Source: Candidatus Dojkabacteria bacterium (lineage in GTDB: Bacteria; Patescibacteriota; Dojkabacteria; SC72; JAFGCJ01). From it: 64,000 bases of DNA. A program made the translations under genes and the position numbers. Of this stretch, positions 10,299 to 63,266 are shown piece after piece. The stretch lies in assembly GCA_016929645.1 (NCBI GenBank), contig JAFGIK010000026.1, positions 14,288 to 78,287 of the forward strand, in the 5' to 3' direction. Below the pieces are notes generated by a model. It was not told where the DNA came from, did not search any database, and saw only the letters and a list, made by a program, of their open reading frames with translations. Each line of letters opens with the position of its first letter. Positions within the stretch are counted from its first letter, which is position 1.

Positions 10299-10328
10299 AA
10301 AAAATCTATCTTAATATATTATTTATTC

Positions 10329-10610
10329 TTACTGTTTATATACTAAATCACCCTTTTTGACGACTCCGCTGACTTTCATACCAAAATCCTTTTCTGCTTC
10401 GGCTTCTGTAATATCAGCACCATCAACCTGCATTGAATCTACAGATTGCTCGACAAGAACATTTCCATCTTTGTCATAGATCTTGATCTGATCACCAACA
10501 GTCATCTTTTCTAGAGGATGAACTACTGCAACAGAAATCTTGTCGAAAAAGTGAACAATCACTCCAACTTTTGTACCTTCAAAAGAGGCCTGATTTCCTG
10601 TTTCGTCCAT
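10329..10610 (-). CDS. hypothetical small beta-rich protein
   Basis: 93 aa ORF co-directional with hpf; no recognisable family. Confidence 0.4.
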   Translation of the reverse strand: MDETGNQASFEGTKVGVIVHFFDKISVAVVHPLEKMTVGDQIKIYDKDGNVLVEQSVDSMQVDGADITEAEAEKDFGMKVSGVVKKGDLVYKQ

Positions 10611-10755
10611 TAGTATAAATATTAAAACTTAGTAATATTTATACTAACATTAACAATGCAGTTATTCAACACGGAAAATAAAAATTATAAGCTTTGAAAA
10701 AAATGGTAGGAAAAGTGTACAGTTCTTATATCTCTATTATCAATTTTTGATTAAC

Positions 10756-10815
10756 CGTGTCCTTTAGCTCCAACTCTTGAATTGCACTCATGGTGCGAAG
10801 CTAAAGGACACGGAA
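10756..10815. repeat. perfect 14-bp inverted repeat (CCGTGTCCTTTAGC / GCTAAAGGACACGG) around a 32-bp spacer
   Basis: Read directly; lies just 3' of the GC-rich small gene on the minus strand; no U-tract, so not a classical terminator. Confidence 0.6.
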
Positions 10816-10832
10816 ATGGCGGCGCAAGGATT

Positions 10833-11090
10833 TTAATTGCACCAAGAGGAAAGAACTATCGCCCCGACGAGGGCGATAGGTAGGGCGAAGAGTGGGAAAT
10901 TCCATATGTTATGAGTTATTACCAAGCTAAGGGGCGCCCCTATGACCGCTCCAAGTGGGAGCAATGGTAACGTCCAATAGACCACTCTCTTTAGCCACTC
11001 GATTCGCTTCTCGCGGCGGATAGTATTGAGCTCAGAGAGCCAATGGCTAATGTTCCTATCTTCTTGACTATAGTCTTCGTTGTCGTCCAT
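10833..11090 (-). CDS. small two-TM membrane protein encoded in a GC-rich (about 50 percent) block, likely horizontally acquired
   Basis: ATG at 11090 with strong SD GGAGGTG 5 nt upstream (track uses GTG at 11096); codon usage GC3-rich unlike neighbours. Confidence 0.5.
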   Translation of the reverse strand: MDDNEDYSQEDRNISHWLSELNTIRREKRIEWLKRVVYWTLPLLPLGAVIGAPLSLVITHNIWNFPLFALPIALVGAIVLSSWCN

Positions 11091-11198
11091 ACTCACCTCC
11101 TATTTTTTTCAAGAGCATAATAATTATACCACACTATGGGGTGTATCTCAACAGGGACGAAACCGGGAAAGTTGCTCTGTGATCCACTCAATTCTTAT

Positions 11199-27263: not shown

Positions 27264-28031
27264 ATGGAAAAACAATTCAAAGGATTAAATAGATTCAATA
27301 TATTTATGGGGGCATTACATTTGCTACAAGCTCTTGCAGTCTATTTCATAAGTGATCCTGATAAAGGCATCGTTCCAATAACCATTAATTATCTAGAATA
27401 TGATCAAATCGCTGCAAAATTATTACCTGCAACTAAAGAAGTATTTTCAGTAAATTTGGCTTGGTTTGTTGTTATCTTTTTTCTGTTAAGCTCTGTTGCT
27501 CACTTTTTCATTGGAACTATTTATATGAGTAAATACGAATCAGATCTAAAACTCGGGATTAACAAAGTTAGATGGTTCGAATATTCACTTAGTGCAAGTG
27601 TCATGATGATAGCAATAAGCTTACTATCTGGGATCTATGATTTATCAAGTCTTATTATGATTTTTACACTTGACGCACTTATGAATCTATTAGGACTTGC
27701 AATGGAAAAAGAAAATCAAGGGAAATCAAAGCTGAATTGGTTAACTTTTATACTCGGCTGTATAGCAGGAATTGTCCCATGGATTGTTTACGGAATTTAT
27801 GTTTATGGGGCAAGTCAATATGGAGGAGGAAATATTCCAGATTTCGTTTATTGGATTTACGTGTCTATCTTTTTGTTCTTTAATAGTTTTGCTGTAAATA
27901 TGTTTTTGCAATATAAGAAAATTGGACCTTGGAAAGATTATCTGTATGGAGAAAAGGTATATATTATATTAAGCTTGGTAGCAAAGTCTTTACTTGCATG
28001 GCAGGTATTTGCTGGAACATTGAGACCATAG
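27264..28031 (+). CDS. heliorhodopsin (7-TM retinal protein)
   Basis: Recalled heliorhodopsin motifs all present: N-terminal FNxxxGxxHLLQ, VRWFEYSLSASVM, GCIAGIVPW, FLFFNSFA, YIILSLVAKSLLAWQVF (Schiff-base Lys). Confidence 0.75.
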   Translation: MEKQFKGLNRFNIFMGALHLLQALAVYFISDPDKGIVPITINYLEYDQIAAKLLPATKEVFSVNLAWFVVIFFLLSSVAHFFIGTIYMSKYESDLKLGINKVRWFEYSLSASVMMIAISLLSGIYDLSSLIMIFTLDALMNLLGLAMEKENQGKSKLNWLTFILGCIAGIVPWIVYGIYVYGASQYGGGNIPDFVYWIYVSIFLFFNSFAVNMFLQYKKIGPWKDYLYGEKVYIILSLVAKSLLAWQVFAGTLRP

Positions 28032-28479: not shown

Positions 28480-28550
28480 TTGCGGGACCAGGATTCGAAC
28501 CTGGACTAGGCGCTTCAGAGGCGCCCGTCCTACCATTAGACGATCCCGCA
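28480..28550 (-). tRNA. tRNA-Gln (anticodon CUG)
   Basis: Hand-folded cloverleaf: acceptor UGCGGGA/UCCCGCA (U1-A72), 3-bp D-stem, anticodon stem GGCGC/GCGCC loop CUCUGAA, T-arm CCAGG-UUCGAAU-CCUGG. Confidence 0.85.
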
Positions 28551-35407: not shown

Positions 35408-37300
35408 TTACTGTTTAAAATCAGAATCCTTGGATACCGGATTTGGCTCTGCGATCTTTATTAAATCCGACGCCTTCATGATTATTGATCTATCACGTCT
35501 ACCAGCATTAAACGCTACCTTTTCCTTTTCCCAGAAAGATTTATCAATATATGTCTCAATCTCGAACAATTTTCCAAAAGGTGGAACAGCTCCAACTTTT
35601 ACCCCAAGCTCTGACTCAACAAACTCAGGGTCAGCAAACTTAAGCTTTTCGCCTACAACAGCAGAAGCTTTTTTCATATCAAGCTTCTTATCCGCAGGTA
35701 TACAGACCATAACAAGGCCTCCATCAGGTTTGGTCAAAATCATCGCTTTTGGTGCAATATCCATAGGGGTATTTCGCACTTCAGCCGCCTCTTCCGAAGT
35801 TTTTACAGATCGATGTTCGATTACTTCATATTTAACATCCTCAGAATCAAGCAATCTTTTCAATCTGACAAAAATCACATCACTTTCCTCACCTATATTA
35901 ACAGCCAATCCTAATTCTTTTAGGTGGTCGGGATTTGCAATAGATGGTGCATCCATAACAGATGTTCTACCACGTCTTGTCATTGGAAAGGCAATTGTTT
36001 CTTTTAGAGATTGCTCATTTGCAAGAAGCATGATAATTCTATCAACACCCAGAGCTAATCCTCCATGAGGTGGGGTTCCGAGTTCAAAGGCCTTTACCAT
36101 ATGTCCGATAGCTTTCATCATATCTTCCTCAGAATATCCCATTATCTTGTAAGTCGCTTTCAATACTTCAGGATCATGCGCACGGATACTTCCACCACCT
36201 ACTTCAAGACCATTACAAACAAGGTCATACTGAGTTGTCATTATTTTATCAATATTTTCACCTTTTAAGTGCCATTCTATATGCTCATCAACTGGTTTGC
36301 TAAATGGGTTATGAGTAAATACCCAGCCACTTCTACTTTCTTCAACTTCACTTGCGTCCTTTCGGTCAACTTTCTTGAAAAAAGGAAACTTCACAACCCA
36401 AGCAAATGCAAGTACATTAGCTTTTTTCTCCTCTTCTGTTCTTAGATCAAACTTATCTGCACCATATTTTTTTATCGCTTCATCATAAGGAATTACAGGG
36501 AATGGATCTTCTTTCAATTTAGATCCAACAGCTTTTACAGCCGCTTTGACAGAATTTTCAACAGCACTCATAACCTCAGATTCATTAACAAAACTCATTT
36601 CTAAATCAAGTTGTGTAAATTCGAATCCTCGATCAAACTTCAAATCTTCATCTCGAATACATCTGGCTAACTGAAAATATCTATCTACACCAGCAGTCAT
36701 AAGTAGTTGTTTGTATTGTTGCGGGCTTTGAGGCAAGGCATAAAATTTGCCGGGAGCCATCCTTGATGGGACAAGGAAATTTCGAGCTCCCTCAGATGTT
36801 CCCATAGACAGAAGTGGGGTCTCTACTTCTGTAAAATCCTGTTCAAAAAAACCTTCTCTTAATGATCTAACAAAATTTGACCTCATAACGAGAATATTGT
36901 GCATTCGTTCTCTTCGTAAATCCAGATATCGATATTTCAACCTTAATTCTTCATCGATTTCATACCCATCACTTTTTACAGGAATTGGTAGTTCTTTGCA
37001 TTTATTAAGAACTTTATATTCAGAGACATCGATTTCAATTGTTCCTGTAACTAAATCCTTATTGACACTGTTTTCTGGTCTTTTATTTACTTTTCCAATA
37101 ATTTCAATAACTGATTCATCAGAAAGCTTATCCCCTTTTTTAGTAATAACACATTGGATAATACCTAACTTATCCCGAAGATCAACAAAAGTTACACGTC
37201 CATGATCACGCAGTGTATCAACCCATCCTTGTAGTTTTATAGTTTCTCCAACTTTCTCATTTGCTTGTGCAGTAAGAGTTCTTGATAAATTTGGATTCAT
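35408..37300 (-). CDS. aspS: aspartyl-tRNA synthetase (short form, apparently lacking GAD insertion) fused to C-terminal YbaK/ProX-like aminoacyl-tRNA deacylase domain
   Basis: Class II motif 2 FRDEDLKFDRGFEFTQLDLEMSF, motif 3 GGGSIR...GLALGVDR; C-terminal about 160 aa with GAVPPFG signature of YbaK/ProX. Confidence 0.85.
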   Translation of the reverse strand: MNPNLSRTLTAQANEKVGETIKLQGWVDTLRDHGRVTFVDLRDKLGIIQCVITKKGDKLSDESVIEIIGKVNKRPENSVNKDLVTGTIEIDVSEYKVLNKCKELPIPVKSDGYEIDEELRLKYRYLDLRRERMHNILVMRSNFVRSLREGFFEQDFTEVETPLLSMGTSEGARNFLVPSRMAPGKFYALPQSPQQYKQLLMTAGVDRYFQLARCIRDEDLKFDRGFEFTQLDLEMSFVNESEVMSAVENSVKAAVKAVGSKLKEDPFPVIPYDEAIKKYGADKFDLRTEEEKKANVLAFAWVVKFPFFKKVDRKDASEVEESRSGWVFTHNPFSKPVDEHIEWHLKGENIDKIMTTQYDLVCNGLEVGGGSIRAHDPEVLKATYKIMGYSEEDMMKAIGHMVKAFELGTPPHGGLALGVDRIIMLLANEQSLKETIAFPMTRRGRTSVMDAPSIANPDHLKELGLAVNIGEESDVIFVRLKRLLDSEDVKYEVIEHRSVKTSEEAAEVRNTPMDIAPKAMILTKPDGGLVMVCIPADKKLDMKKASAVVGEKLKFADPEFVESELGVKVGAVPPFGKLFEIETYIDKSFWEKEKVAFNAGRRDRSIIMKASDLIKIAEPNPVSKDSDFKQ

Positions 37301-37345
37301 GAATTTTTAATTAAAAATTATTTTCATAAAAGATAGCAACCTGAT

Positions 37346-37397
37346 TAAAAAAAAAAGTCGTCTTTTTTGATAGCAATTACTATCAAAAAGGACGACT
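37346..37397 (-). terminator. rho-independent terminator of recJ (18-bp stem, CAAUU loop, followed by U10 on minus strand)
   Basis: AGTCGTCTTTTTTGATAG-caatt-ACTATCAAAAAGGACGACT preceded on + strand by A10. Confidence 0.65.
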
Positions 37398-37569
37398 TTG
37401 TCGTGGTGCCACCTTTATTCCTTCAAAAGTTTTACCTCTATGAAGCTCTAATAACAAATATCTAACATGTCACGTAAATTTTGTGAGCTTGCACCGTCCT
37501 CACTCGCTTAAGATTGATTATATCACAAAGTTCATGTCACTCCATACAAAACAGATAAAAATCTAATCC

Positions 37570-59981: not shown

Positions 59982-60899
59982 CTACAACCAGTTAACTTTT
60001 ATTATGTGACTTGTAAAATCTGTTTTAAACCATAAGTCCCCATTTGAACTGTCAACTAGATATCTCGCTATCGTAACGGCATGAGTAGCTTGATCATCAG
60101 CAACAAGTTCGTAAACCCAGATTTGCCAATAATTACAAGATTTGTATCCTTCTCCGATTTCAACACGGAATTCAATACTTACTCGATCATCGTCAGATAC
60201 AGCTTTTATGTATTCCTGAATATATGGTAGATCCCTAATCAAATTTAAGGCTTCATCATAAGATATTACTGGCCCATTCATAGTCCCATTTGTGCATATG
60301 GGTTCTGAATACTCTTTGTATTCAAGTAAATCAATACTGTCGTTGTGTAAATCGTACTTAAAATAACCTTTTATTTCTCCATCACACATTATTGTTTGTA
60401 TTTCAATATCACCGCCATAATCACGAAATGGATATTTGCTAGTACGGCATAATCCGTCTATCCCAACTTCTTCATTTTTAGCATTCTTAGATTTAGTGAC
60501 TTCAGATACATTTGTCTCCGTGTTTTGTAAATCACTGTTTGACCAAGGCATTGTTGAAACGACTTCAAATCTACTTGGCATTCCACGTATCAACCACTCG
60601 TTGTAATTGAGCATAATGTTAAATTGTTTATAGGAGAACAGTAAAATAATTCCCAACAAACTTATTAGAACTTCAAGAGAAGCAATCTTATTTTTCTTCC
60701 CAGAAAAAAAAATTAGGACTAAAGATAGAACACCAGTAACACAAAATGGAATAATAAAATAATATGGCTCATATCCTGTGTGATTCGTCCCGTTAATGAT
60801 CGGCCATCCAACAATAGTCGCCAAAAGTAAAATATTTATGGCAAGAAATCCTATCTGAATATTATTTGAAACCTTTTGTTTTATTGATTTACTTAACAT
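59982..60899 (-). CDS. hypothetical multi-TM N-terminal domain protein
   Basis: Three N-terminal TMs then soluble domain; no family recognised. Confidence 0.4.
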   Translation of the reverse strand: MLSKSIKQKVSNNIQIGFLAINILLLATIVGWPIINGTNHTGYEPYYFIIPFCVTGVLSLVLIFFSGKKNKIASLEVLISLLGIILLFSYKQFNIMLNYNEWLIRGMPSRFEVVSTMPWSNSDLQNTETNVSEVTKSKNAKNEEVGIDGLCRTSKYPFRDYGGDIEIQTIMCDGEIKGYFKYDLHNDSIDLLEYKEYSEPICTNGTMNGPVISYDEALNLIRDLPYIQEYIKAVSDDDRVSIEFRVEIGEGYKSCNYWQIWVYELVADDQATHAVTIARYLVDSSNGDLWFKTDFTSHIIKVNWL

Positions 60900-60950
60900 A
60901 TATGTATTTTATCAAGACATGGTATAGGTTACCAACCTTAAGTTAATAGA

Positions 60951-60981
60951 TACCAGACCCGACTTGAACAGGCACCCCACT
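60951..60981 (-). other. tRNA-Pro-like 3' fragment (anticodon-loop GUGGGGUG fused to T-arm and acceptor 3' strand)
   Basis: Minus strand reads AGTGGGGTG-CCTG-TTCAAGT-CGGGT-CTGGTA; T-loop identical to tRNA-Pro at 61902-61975. Confidence 0.35.
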
Positions 60982-61115
60982 ACTCCCTTTTGGTAGATGT
61001 CTTAATCGGAAGAATCGTACTATGTACAAACATATTCTTCCTTCTATTGATACAACAGTCTCGTAATGTTCTAGAGCTTAAGAATAAGCGGAAGTTTTTA
61101 TTTGAGATTCCTGAG

Positions 61116-61613
61116 TTAATTTGAATATAACCCTTTATCAGTCATCTGAGATTTAAGTCCTTTGCGTGGGAATTTGATTCTTAAACCATTTGACAGTTTA
61201 AGTTTTAGCATCTGGAATCGATCTCTGTGTAAGGCACTTTTATCCCAATCCAAATTTGGATACAATTCAATCAACGTTTCAATCATATCTTTTGTTGTAA
61301 ATTCAACATGCTCCCAATCAGACTCCCTATTTTCTCCTTTTTCTGGTTCAATAACCTCTATAATATCTATTGAAAAATCATTATATTGAATAGGATTATT
61401 TAAAATGAATATCCCTATTCTTCTATCATTAAAAGTAGTTTCCTCACCAAGTAAGGAAATTGACAATAGTTCAGATTTAATTTTTTCATAATCCTCACTA
61501 GAAGAGGTTTGATATCCTAGATGATCTAAATCCAAATTATCTAAATTTATGCCTGCAGCATTAAAAGCTTGAAAAAATTTCTCAAGGAAATCTTTATATG
61601 AATCAATTAACAT
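61116..61613 (-). CDS. hypothetical protein
   Basis: 165 aa ORF between tRNA fragment sites. Confidence 0.4.
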   Translation of the reverse strand: MLIDSYKDFLEKFFQAFNAAGINLDNLDLDHLGYQTSSSEDYEKIKSELLSISLLGEETTFNDRRIGIFILNNPIQYNDFSIDIIEVIEPEKGENRESDWEHVEFTTKDMIETLIELYPNLDWDKSALHRDRFQMLKLKLSNGLRIKFPRKGLKSQMTDKGLYSN

Positions 61614-61843
61614 TATTTATCTTGTGTAAATTTAAAATATATTTGTTCGGAAGTAGTCTGATAACCTATTGAAAATTGGTAATGCCAGACGACTCTCGTT
61701 TCCCTCGCTAGATACATAGATAAAACCTGATCCATGTATCCACACCGATTGCCCTGCAAACTACTGAGTCTATAATCACCACAATGTACATTATATGTAT
61801 ATGGTCGGATGGCAACCCCACGGCTCCCTTTTAGATGTATAAA

Positions 61844-61885
61844 TCGGGGTGACTCGACTTGAACGAGCGACCCCACGCACCCCAT
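61844..61885 (-). pseudogene. 3' half of a second tRNA-Pro(GGG) (anticodon loop to discriminator)
   Basis: AUGGGGU-GCGUG-GGGUC-GCUCG-UUCAAGU-CGAGU-CACCCCG-A; acceptor strand complements the 5' half at 62015-62053. Confidence 0.55.
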
Positions 61886-61887
61886 TC

Positions 61888-61990
61888 TGTCAACTTACAA
61901 ATCGGGATGACCCGACTTGAACGGGCGACCTCACGCACCCCATGCGTGCGCACTAGCCAACTGTGCTACATCCCGATTTGTAAGTTGACA
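61888..61990. repeat. perfect 15-bp inverted repeats (TGTCAACTTACAAAT / ATTTGTAAGTTGACA) immediately flanking the intact tRNA-Pro, extending its acceptor stem to a 22-bp helix
   Basis: Read directly at 61888-61902 and 61976-61990. Confidence 0.7.
61902..61975 (-). tRNA. tRNA-Pro (anticodon GGG), intact
   Basis: Hand fold: CGGGAUG/CAUCCCG acceptor (C1-G72), D GCAC/GUGC, anticodon stem CACGC/GCGUG loop AUGGGGU, variable AGGUC, T-arm GCCCG-UUCAAGU-CGGGU, discriminator A. Confidence 0.85.
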
Positions 61991-62014
61991 TCTTTCCCCA
62001 ACATGGGAAACGTC

Positions 62015-62053
62015 TCCCCATGCGTGTGCTCTAGCCAAATGAGCTACACCCCG
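62015..62053 (-). pseudogene. 5' half of the second tRNA-Pro(GGG) (acceptor to anticodon loop)
   Basis: CGGGGUG-UA-GCUC-AUUUGGCUA-GAGC-A-CACGC-AUGGGGA; combines with 61844-61885 into a perfect cloverleaf. Confidence 0.55.
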
Positions 62054-62219
62054 ATTCAAAAATCAACATTTTCCCTCTACTCGAGGGGCATCTCCCCATA
62101 CTACGCACCGACCAATTTACCTAGAATTCAATACCATTTCATAAAATATTTACGATAATATCATAAAACAACAGTAATCTTACTAAATCAATACTAGTTA
62201 TCAATCAGCAATAAATCAC

Positions 62220-63266
62220 CTACCTCTTTATCTCAATTATTACTTGACTGGGAGAATCACTTTTGGAAATTTTGTATGTCGTTTCCTTTGTTAACTTAAA
62301 CGTATATGTGCTTGTTCCACTTGCAAATGATCCGGACATGCTTGGTGAAATGCCAGAAAGCTCGGTATCAATAACATTATCGGTTCCACAAATTGAATCC
62401 TTTTGTAAATTTGAAAATTTTACTGTAACCGTCTTATTGGTAGCATTATATGTCGCAGTAACTGGTGGAATTTTATTTGCTGAATTGGAAGATGTTTCCC
62501 AAACAAATTTCAGAACATCACCTTCAATAGCCCATGAGTATCTTACTAGGCTGACATCACCACTAGAGTTCACAGTTGAGAAAGTTTGGGTATTATTTGA
62601 AAAAACATTTGGGTCTGCAACGGCATCTGTATCATCTTCATCATCTGAGCCACTACTATCAAAATCACCAGAATCATCGTCAGCGGCATCATCAGGACCA
62701 TTACTCATATCTGGATAAATTACATCAAGCCAAACACTTAAGCCATCGCCTTCTCGCAATCTAAATTCGACATCACTATCAATTCCAATATTATAAATTG
62801 ACTCATTCTCATTACTGCTGATTGCATGATAAATATTTACAATACCATCTTGATTAACAGTTCTAGAGCTTTGATAGGCAATTCCACTGTTATCTGTTGA
62901 AACTCCTTTTATAATAACTTCAATATATCCAGATGCTGAATTTAAGCTAGCTGTAACCAAAGGCAATTTTGAACTGCTTGATTGGAATTTAAATTCAAAT
63001 TCATGGTAGTCCGCAACTCTAGAATCCTCAATCGAAACCAGATCATAGTCTACGTCTTCATCGTATTCACCGATGGCCTGTGCATCCATTGAAAAATCAA
63101 CAATGTCTTCAGTACCAGTATCTTTGTCATCGTTTGTGGAACTATCTGAATCGTTGCTGGAATCATCAGTAGTCTCATCTTTTTTACATCCACTGAAAAG
63201 CAAAGAGAAGGAAACAATTAATAAGATAAAAAATGAAGAAAATCTTTTCAATGAGAGTGATTTCAT
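62220..63266 (-). CDS. acidic low-complexity lipoprotein
   Basis: Lipobox LLFSGC after signal peptide; Asp/Ser-rich. Confidence 0.5.
   Translation of the reverse strand: MKSLSLKRFSSFFILLIVSFSLLFSGCKKDETTDDSSNDSDSSTNDDKDTGTEDIVDFSMDAQAIGEYDEDVDYDLVSIEDSRVADYHEFEFKFQSSSSKLPLVTASLNSASGYIEVIIKGVSTDNSGIAYQSSRTVNQDGIVNIYHAISSNENESIYNIGIDSDVEFRLREGDGLSVWLDVIYPDMSNGPDDAADDDSGDFDSSGSDDEDDTDAVADPNVFSNNTQTFSTVNSSGDVSLVRYSWAIEGDVLKFVWETSSNSANKIPPVTATYNATNKTVTVKFSNLQKDSICGTDNVIDTELSGISPSMSGSFASGTSTYTFKLTKETTYKISKSDSPSQVIIEIKR

Follow-up and report, generated by a model that had tools for sequence, protein, structure and literature searches.

Nested tRNA-Pro(GGG) genes in a Candidatus Dojkabacteria genome and comparable nests in other lineages of the Candidate Phyla Radiation

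The tRNA-Pro(GGG) nest and the closest described systems

Genomic islands that target tRNA genes leave a characteristic signature, namely one intact tRNA gene (tDNA), kilobases of island with an integrase and one displaced tDNA fragment (Islander, PMC4383910). In tandem arrays each island is accompanied by one fragment and one integrase, and 3′ fragments predominate (3760 vs 159; Islander, PMC4383910). Intron transposition and split tRNAs in archaea have been summarised in PMC10714607. Here we analysed a stretch of 64,000 nt (the window) of the genome of a Candidatus Dojkabacteria bacterium (contig JAFGIK010000026.1), a member of the Candidate Phyla Radiation (CPR), which carries a nest of tRNA-Pro(GGG) gene copies. 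The original prediction for this DNA had noticed tRNA-Pro fragments in the region and attributed them to serial integration and excision at a tRNA attB site. The observation is real and larger than first noted, and one structural detail had been misread. With slightly better than even confidence we lean towards a Russian-doll locus formed by the serial DNA-level insertion of a tRNA-bearing mini-cassette of ~130 nt into the resident tRNA-Pro(GGG) gene, the fragments being eroded shells and junction scars.

The nest comprises three layers at 61802-62126 on the minus strand, in which 5′ halves and 3′ halves are mirrored around an intact gene:

61902-61976, minus strand: intact innermost tRNA-Pro(GGG) (ARAGORN; Rfam tRNA, 56.4 bits; every stem paired)
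61977-62015, minus strand: leader 1, 39 nt, with AGACG, a predicted hairpin UUUCCC/GGGAAA (61993-62010) and the predicted 5′ strand of a stalk, UGUCAACUUACAAA (61977-61990)
61886-61901, minus strand: trailer 1, 16 nt, containing UUUGUAAGUUGACA; the 3′ strand of the stalk lies at 61888-61901 (inverted repeat; fold prediction)
62016-62054, minus strand: 5′ half of shell 1 (outer tRNA-Pro(GGG)), ending with ATGGGG (direct repeat; ARAGORN on the joined halves)
61844-61885, minus strand: 3′ half of shell 1, starting with ATGGGGU (direct repeat; stem differences from the inner copy compensated)
62055-62093, minus strand: leader 2, 39 nt, with AGAUG and a hairpin CCCUC/GAGGG (62073-62088), homologous to leader 1 (alignment)
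61832-61843, minus strand: trailer 2, 12 nt, UUUAUACAUCUA (alignment)
62094-62126, minus strand: eroded 5′ half of shell 2, ending with ATGGGG (alignment; score matched by 26 of 5000 random segments)
61802-61831, minus strand: eroded 3′ half of shell 2, with a decayed loop AAAGGGAG, CCGUG, GGGUU, GCC, a deleted T-arm and AUCCGA-CCA (score matched by 106 of 5000 random segments)

The innermost tRNA-Pro(GGG) is of the bacterial type with C1:G72 and A73, does not encode the CCA end and is presumed to be the working gene. The repeat finder detected a direct repeat of 78 nt (61938-62015 vs 62016-62093, 72% identity) and one of 48 nt (61838-61885 vs 61896-61943, 90% identity), and the intact tRNA is flanked mirror-symmetrically, on its 5′ side by two copies of a 78-nt unit and on its 3′ side by two of a 58-nt unit. 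Removal of the insert in silico joins the halves of shell 1 to a tRNA-Pro(GGG) that ARAGORN folds into a perfect cloverleaf. Each layer forms a discrete unit in which a hairpin-bearing leader of 39 nt is followed by the tRNA and a trailer of 12-16 nt. Both leaders are exactly 39 nt long, follow ATGGGG with AGAYG and carry a hairpin of differing stem sequence at the same place, beginning 4-5 nt past ATGGGG; the unit therefore has defined ends. The anticodon-loop sequence ATGGGG (62016-62021, 61880-61885 and 62094-62099) flanks the inner unit on both sides and the outer unit on the left only. The inserts, of 130 nt and about 260 nt, consist of the tRNA copy and short flanks only, with spacers of 12-39 nt.

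The resemblance of the nest to tDNA islands lies in the tRNA gene as target, the crossover in the anticodon loop, an insert that restores a working tRNA and displaced fragments in direct orientation: the intact gene at 61902-61976 is accompanied by fragments at 61844-61885, 61802-61831 and 60950-60991, all on the minus strand. It differs from them, however, in the lack of an integrase, in an insert of only ~130 nt that carries a whole tRNA instead of a 3′ segment, and in the displacement of both halves, which results in a nest. The intervals between the intact gene and its fragments measure 12-39 nt or contain only a yecM gene, no integrase being located there, and the fragments are not one-sided, since the 5′ halves at 62016-62054 and 62094-62126 mirror the 3′ halves. 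Whereas the copies in the window share the anticodon-loop core ATGGGG, a shared core of 6-8 nt was not seen in the three nests from other CPR lineages described below (L046, L052 and L060). The original prediction had furthermore stated that the window contains no integrase, and this holds: Pfam scans of its ~55 open reading frames (ORFs) of at least 120 aa revealed housekeeping genes, RecA, RecJ, RecX and one PD-(D/E)XK nuclease, and neither an integrase (PF00589 included) nor a transposase or site-specific recombinase. A splicing endonuclease or an RtcB ligase was not found by these scans either.

Archaeal tRNA introns with a bulge-helix-bulge motif, including their transposition in Thermoproteales and the split and tri-split tRNAs, resemble the nests in that the inserts occupy tRNA loops at varied positions (L052 vs L060) and in that pairing of leader and trailer brings the halves together. 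The nests, however, are bacterial with bacterial tRNA identity, and the insert itself is a complete tRNA of the same identity. A bulge-helix-bulge intron was rejected as the motif could not be drawn at any junction of the window, L046, L052 or L060 (inspection by hand, no dedicated search tool being used) and the AUGG at the 3′ end of the intron cannot pair with the AUGG of the exon. Introns of group I and of group II were likewise rejected: the insert measures 130 nt, and an Rfam scan of 60850-62250 at E<=10 yielded only tRNA and three weak matches which were taken as chance.

A further parallel is provided by the processing stalks of bacterial rRNA and the intervening sequences of 23S rRNA that are cleaved by RNase III, in which the flanks of an embedded stable RNA form a long perfect helix. 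In the window a perfect inverted repeat of 22 nt (61888-61909 / 61969-61990, 100% complementary) lengthens the inner acceptor stem by 15 bp and thus provides a flanking helix of the length expected for an intervening sequence (at least ~20 bp), which is also present in the predicted RNA fold. In the nest, too, excision without ligation would be tolerable if the host RNA is dispensable; the host molecule, however, is a tRNA instead of an rRNA and cleavage is putative.

IS200/IS605 elements and the REP/RAYT (REPIN) system also comprise small non-autonomous hairpin units that insert beside a short specific single-stranded sequence, and a nested palindrome as well as a Y1_Tnp gene were detected 1.9 kb from the L060 nest. 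The single-stranded DNA of the cassette is predicted to form a hairpin and a cloverleaf on a stalk, neither ATGGGG copy being paired (-41 kcal/mol, z -9.0). However, these elements normally cause no target duplication whereas 6 nt are repeated here, and Y1 was not found in the window. The inner element also ends with ATGGGG, which may be read either as a match to a right-end cleavage sequence or as a 6-nt duplication. A REP-like repeat family was not found in the window, in which the stalk sequence of the inner unit is unique. We know of no case in which a tRNA gene forms the loop of an element of this type.

Displaced fragments, the yecM interval and divergence of the copies

A tRNA-Pro fragment with a UUCAAGU T-loop had been predicted at 60951-60981, and this assignment was correct. 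The T-arm copy at 60956-60973 (GACCCGACTTGAACAGGC) and the two tRNA copies give three matches in the window where 0.01 are expected, and the local alignment of 60940-60981 to the intact tRNA reaches a score of 19, which was attained by none of 5000 random window segments; a chance resemblance is thereby ruled out. The supposed direct fusion of the anticodon loop to the T-arm was not confirmed, since the piece aligns contiguously to tRNA positions ~41-66 with a 1-nt gap. It reads GUG-GGGU(C)-GCCUG UUCAAGU CGGGU where the outer copy has GCGUG GGGUC GCUCG. Judged by this alignment, its GUGGGGU corresponds to the end of the anticodon stem and the variable loop, not to the anticodon loop, and the same applies to 61803-61822. 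The statement that all breakpoints fall in AUGGGG accordingly stands for the three clear junctions of the nest (62016-62021, 61880-61885 and 62094-62099) and fails for the GUGGGG of 60975-60980 and 61816-61821. Just upstream of the latter two a decayed loop copy, AAAGGGAG, may be present; as a possible decayed AUGGGGUG it is identical to GCAUGGGGUGCGUGGGGU at 12 of 18 positions, which makes the assignment weak.

The second predicted fragment, a degenerate TCCCCAT...ACGCACC, is present at 62093-62109 and represents the ATGGGG end of an eroded 5′ half. The piece at 62093-62110 aligns to the tRNA 5′ half via TTGG, GTGCG and ATGGGG and has ATGGGGAGAYG in common with the next junction. Alignment to the intact tRNA-Pro, set beforehand as the check on both fragments, is thus significant for the piece at 60951 and weaker for that at 62093, with 26 of 5000 random segments reaching its score with the loop included and 489 of 5000 without it. 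Although weakly supported alone, the latter becomes convincing as mirror partner of 61802-61831 and is considered real. The earlier description had left out this partner as well as a paralogy of ~80 nt between 60950-61031 and 61802-61875, which concerns the surroundings of yecM:

61116-61613, minus strand: yecM/VOC-family gene between the junction repeats (Pfam YecM, 3.5e-22)
60950-60991, minus strand: copy of the 3′ half of shell 2 with the T-arm kept, AAAAGGGAG-UAGUG-GGGU-GCCUG UUCAAGU CGGGU-CUGGUAU (score reached by 0 of 5000 random segments)
60992-61031, minus strand: copy of trailer 2 (60992-61005) and a possible decayed tRNA 3′ end (61006-61031) (alignment; relative L005)

The region 60940-61050 aligns with 61790-61875 (...CCGAU-U.A.ACAUCU...AAAAGGGAG..GUGGGGU.GCC), and its score without the tRNA part was reached by one of 3000 random segments. 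Each side of yecM therefore bears a copy of the junction formed by the tRNA end, trailer 2 and the 3′ half of shell 2, the downstream copy retaining the T-arm which has been lost from the upstream one. The stretch 61006-61031 contains a hairpin UUGUAC-AUA-GUACGA and ...UUCCGA; it is conserved in the relative L005 and alone is weak (477 of 5000 random segments).

The YecM protein of the window shares 100% identity with a protein named “VOC family protein [Candidatus Dojkabacteria bacterium]” and is of a housekeeping type, not the product of a mobility gene. A tRNA-Pro, here with the anticodon UGG, precedes yecM also in relatives with a YecM identity of 66-73% (L002, L006 and L005, the contig of the last starting inside the tRNA). 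In L005 (1-760) and L006 (1558-2320) yecM is followed by a decayed copy of the T-arm and acceptor strand of the local tRNA-Pro(UGG), so that the flanking 3′ repeats copy the local tRNA in each genome. In L005 the trailer GAGATGAAA is found in two copies. Comparison of these sequences suggests that the direct tRNA-Pro 3′ repeats around yecM are old and recurrent, and the yecM interval looks like the part of the locus that most resembles an ancient integration or segmental duplication. A mobile island around yecM was rejected, as the gene is of the VOC/YecM housekeeping type and stays beside tRNA-Pro in the relatives. Beyond yecM and tRNA-Pro the synteny of the relatives is poor, and a YecM search of genome contigs yielded one distant Patescibacteria match without the tRNA. 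Protein look-ups with the exact YecM sequence of the window retrieved no record.

The inner and outer tRNA of the nest differ at nine positions, six of which form three fully compensated pairs (6:67, 12:23 and one T-stem pair) and three of which are located in loops; the outer copy has G6:C67, U12:A23 and a T-stem U:A where the inner has C:G. Polarised with the closest un-nested tRNA-Pro(GGG) genes (L028 and L051) as outgroups, two compensated pairs are derived in the inner copy and five changes, including one compensated T-stem pair, in the outer copy. By our own estimate the probability is ~0.002 that a dead gene with five neutral substitutions would show exactly one compensated pair while all its stems stayed intact. 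Either the inner cassette therefore stems from a sister lineage in which tRNA-Pro(GGG) had diverged under selection, or selection still acts on the outer tRNA. Judged by these substitutions, the present outer copy does not appear to have given rise recently to the inner one, and an import of the cassette from a sister lineage is indicated. The unit is discrete and probably imported, and the substitutions speak against a duplication that was purely local and decayed neutrally thereafter. L028 and L051 are ordinary genes that lack the ATGGGGA-hairpin leader, which rules out that this leader is a usual tRNA leader.

Nested tRNA-Pro(GGG) loci in other CPR lineages

A metagenome scan with a 17-mer of the anticodon arm retrieved 120 loci, mostly ordinary single genes of many taxa, from which nests were picked by self-comparison and ARAGORN. 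Three further nests of tRNA-Pro(GGG) in tRNA-Pro(GGG) were identified:

L046, Candidatus Doudnabacteria: insert between G35 and G36, with the ends CCCGCCCGC...GCGGGCGGG; inner tRNA with CCA
L052, Parcubacteria/Falkowbacteria-like: insert in the D-loop, with leader CCCCGCCUGCCAAAGCCUGAG and trailer CUUAGGCGAUGGCGGGCAGG; inner and outer tRNAs widely different
L060: insert following position 38-40; leader and trailer with homology to those of L052

In all three loci a perfect cloverleaf or an identical copy results when the insert is taken out. Their insert ends pair into a stalk, and the junction repeat does not exceed 2 nt; the pairing of the ends is conserved while their sequence is not, with compensating changes beside the tRNA in L052 and L060. 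The tRNA copies of L060 are 100% identical. The L046 nest was recovered identically in an independent ENA assembly and that of L052 in two further samples or assemblies. In all four loci, the window included, cargo and target tRNA have the same identity, and all five cassette insertions are located in loops or at loop edges. The genes flanking the nests are ordinary ones and encode a glyoxalase/VOC protein, a YbaK-type editing domain, NDK and methyltransferases.

Two contigs of the L060 locus from JGI and ENA (L149 and L150) differ over 3.1 kb only in one single-nucleotide polymorphism and a 114-nt indel (L149, 2017-2130), which comprises exactly one leader, tRNA and trailer. Their alignment thus indicates presence or absence of a whole cassette between near-identical strains, and an assembly artefact (k=141) seems unlikely. 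L150 possesses one extra unmatched 3′ half. An IS200-like Y1_Tnp ORF (L151, 1804-2355; 26.4 bits at a cut-off of 23) lies 1.9 kb from the L060/L149 nest and holds an in-frame GC-rich GTAG-type palindrome nested in a second copy of itself (GTAGGGACAGGTCGCGACCTGTCCCTAC between GTAGGGACAGGTCACGAT and ATCGTGACCTGTCCCTAC). The outermost shell of L060 (1911-2350) additionally bears short insertions rich in GC, located in the D-loop (TCCGTCATAGGCGGA, which resembles the hairpin of L054), the variable region and the T-loop.

Two candidates were discarded: an apparent tRNA-Tyr nest in L080 is an artefact of the ARAGORN intron mode caused by three tandem tRNAs, and the LexA-cluster contigs considered as empty-site alleles for L052 have a different genomic context and are uninformative. 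Several tRNA-Pro(GGG) genes of the scan (L022, L029, L038, L047, L053, L086 and L109) have the T-loop GGCGGAA or GGCGGAG, not the near-universal TTCRANN.

Gottesmanbacteria-like contigs (L054, 1732-2144; L087; L133-L140) carry a GIY-YIG nuclease ORF of 82-88 aa, which is inserted directly 5′ of tRNA-Pro(GGG) and reaches with its stop codon into the tRNA; on the left a second copy of the initial 13 nt of this tRNA is present. A hairpin, TCGGCCATAGGCCGA, opens the insert, and two different left flanks occur among the samples. Phage T4 reportedly encodes SegB, a free-standing GIY-YIG homing endonuclease in a tRNA gene cluster. Homing of this type resembles the present case as a selfish element tied to tRNA genes, with the GIY-YIG ORF of the Gottesmanbacteria-like contigs in immediate neighbourhood of tRNA-Pro(GGG). 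It differs in that a tblastn search revealed no GIY-YIG sequence in the window and in that homing copies an allele and would not by itself create nests.

Possible origins of the nest and further features of the window

According to the reading of serial cassette insertion, a cassette composed of a 39-nt leader (AGAYG and a hairpin), a complete tRNA-Pro(GGG) and a trailer of 12-16 nt would have entered the resident gene at least twice, each time directly after ATGGGG in the anticodon loop. With each event the resident gene would have been divided into its 5′ and 3′ halves while the cassette brought in another intact copy, and proline decoding would therefore never have been lost. The innermost copy would take over the function while the older shells decay, shell 2 mainly by deletion and shell 1 so far being a flawless split gene. 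The stretch 60950-61031 would represent a duplicated right-hand shell junction that left yecM between direct repeats. The insertion presumably took place at the DNA level and in a site-specific manner by an enzyme acting in trans from elsewhere, and the outer shells are presumably non-functional.

As a candidate route, a single-strand-DNA transposase of the HUH/Y1 type may act on the folded tRNA gene; alternatively a host recombinase may act on the anticodon stem-loop. The evidence for the single-strand route is limited and consists of the predicted single-stranded fold of the cassette, the Y1 gene in the vicinity of the L060 nest and the G-rich sense strand. The GC skew of the plus strand is uniformly negative across the window, and the sense strand of the tRNA-Pro is the G-rich strand; this orientation is compatible with exposure on the lagging-strand template, for which the prior is only 50%.

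Several observations weigh against serial insertion of a cassette. Neither a Y1 transposase (Pfam) nor a GIY-YIG gene (Pfam, tblastn) was found in the 64 kb of the window, whose cassette has a 6-nt ATGGGG repeat and an internal AT-rich stalk at a distance of 25 nt from the left boundary; another enzyme may therefore be at work in the Dojkabacteria case. The cassettes of L046, L052 and L060 are, unlike that of the window, GC-rich and end-pairing with a junction repeat of at most 2 nt, and the four loci may share a design without sharing a mechanism. Moreover, the right junction of shell 2 is read via the decayed motif AAAGGGAG, a weak assignment, and an empty-site or polymorphic allele was not found for this species, the closest relative detected having a YecM identity of only 73%. 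The difference between L149 and L150 could in principle result from an assembly effect or from a hairpin deletion instead of an insertion. Finally, continued use of the outer tRNAs would be an equally good reading of the pristine first shell in every locus.

The last point leads to an intervening sequence at the RNA level as the main, though unlikely, rival. Here the nest would be transcribed, the inner tRNA would be released by RNase III and/or by RNase P and RNase Z, and the outer halves would be rejoined or would form a base-paired split tRNA, so that both layers yield tRNA-Pro(GGG). This would explain why all first shells give a flawless cloverleaf after removal of the insert, why every cassette insertion sits in an RNA loop, why the outer copy shows a derived compensated stem pair (~0.002 under neutral decay after a local duplication, by the above estimate) and why the pairing of the insert ends is conserved without their sequence, including the compensating changes in L052 and L060. 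With its 22 bp the perfect stalk is as long as an RNase III substrate, and the predicted RNA folds are far more stable than those of shuffled sequences (z -6.7, -5.4 and -3.2). However, the junctions fit neither a bulge-helix-bulge motif nor a group I or II intron or another Rfam family, the window lacks detectable genes for a splicing endonuclease or RtcB, and we found no published bacterial precedent for protein-dependent tRNA splicing. The duplicated ATGGGG is furthermore a signature of events at the DNA level that is not expected from RNA insertion, and shell 2 has clearly been allowed to decay. A scan for promoters and terminators revealed no more sites than in shuffled sequence.

Two further explanations remain at the DNA level. 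Local replication errors, i.e. separate tandem duplications of the leader with the 5′ half and of the 3′ half with the trailer by slippage or template switching between ATGGGG repeats in a strongly structured and heavily transcribed gene without a mobile unit, are rather improbable in our view: the two sides of the nest can indeed be regarded as tandemly repeated units of 78 nt and 58 nt with ATGGGG at their boundaries, the extra 3′ half of L150 is an asymmetry which side-by-side duplication permits and the copies of L060 are 100% identical, but two matched events would be needed per layer while three of the four loci are symmetric. Such errors also leave unexplained the nests of L052 and L046, in which the inner and outer tRNAs are widely different and yet each pairs perfectly with its own other half, as well as the derived compensated pair of the outer copy, and give no reason for a perfect 15-bp inverted repeat past the acceptor stem. 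The classical interpretation of the original prediction, according to which integrase-bearing islands or prophages integrated and excised serially at a tRNA-Pro attB and the fragments are att scars of lost elements, appears quite improbable. Its claim of repeated insertion at one point in the anticodon loop is retained, a crossover there being a standard tDNA sublocation (Islander, PMC4383910); ATGGGG lies on both sides of the inner insert and to the left of the outer one, and direct tRNA 3′ segments bracket yecM here as well as in L005 and L006. The type of element, however, has to be abandoned, given the mirrored repetition of 5′ and 3′ halves, “islands” of 130 nt and about 260 nt which consist of a tRNA and its flanks with spacers of 12-39 nt, and the lack of PF00589 or any other recombinase in 64 kb. 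Where excision is clean, a single site is re-established and no scars stay behind next to each other, whereas here they lie 16 nt apart, and the sole gene between the repeats is a housekeeping-type yecM that has kept its position in relatives of 66-73% identity. A search for elements carrying a tRNA-Pro 3′ segment, as proposed along with that interpretation, yielded no match of the 3′ half in 2.9 million viral contigs, and blastn against phages and plasmids detected only ordinary tRNA-Pro genes. Taking furthermore into account that the other CPR nests are located at other tRNA positions with junction repeats of at most 2 nt, a tyrosine-recombinase crossover of 6-8 nt is not explanatory.

In full-text literature searches we came across no account of one tRNA gene lying within another, in bacteria or CPR, and no report of protein-dependent tRNA introns in bacteria. 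The self-nested tRNA-Pro(GGG) design recurs in CPR and appears to be undescribed. Only tentatively do we propose that such self-nesting cassettes constitute either a hitherto unrecognised minimal selfish element in CPR, a tRNA gene with pairing flanks that would enter loops of the resident gene of like identity, take over its function and move as a folded single strand with an enzyme in trans, or the first protein-dependent intervening sequences of bacterial tRNAs with expressed outer tRNAs. If serial insertion is true and general, a mobile unit would have a way to invade an essential single-copy gene free of cost, as it is itself a copy of the gene, the principle behind tRNA-targeting islands would be carried to its minimum, and CPR genomes would carry a fossil record of successive tRNA alleles, imported ones included. 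It would also raise the question whether processing of split or interrupted tRNAs in the absence of self-splicing introns takes place in any bacterium.

Nested loci escape standard tRNA and Rfam scans or are mis-called by them, and the tRNA complements of CPR genomes may hence be mis-annotated. In the window ARAGORN identified two tRNAs, tRNA-Gln (28480-28550) and tRNA-Pro(GGG) (61901-61976, minus strand), while its intron mode produced chimeras at the nested locus. The intact tRNA-Pro (61902-61975) was not listed when Rfam was run on the whole window, with gathering as well as with E-value thresholds, and scored 56.4 bits in a scan of 1.4 kb; the Rfam filters seem to be defeated by the nested near-identical copies.

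The window is AT-rich with 34-35% G+C. Among its further features is a region on the minus strand (35408-37558) with a T-box-like leader (37385-37558, 41 bits, under the gathering score) upstream of a gene for a class II aminoacyl-tRNA synthetase of the Asp/Lys/Asn type with a C-terminal YbaK/tRNA_edit domain. An ORF-free gap of ~900 nt (10299-11198) without a match in Rfam holds a perfect inverted repeat of 15 nt (10755-10813). The genome of this Dojkabacteria bacterium also encodes a heliorhodopsin (27264-28031, plus strand; Pfam 1.5e-92).

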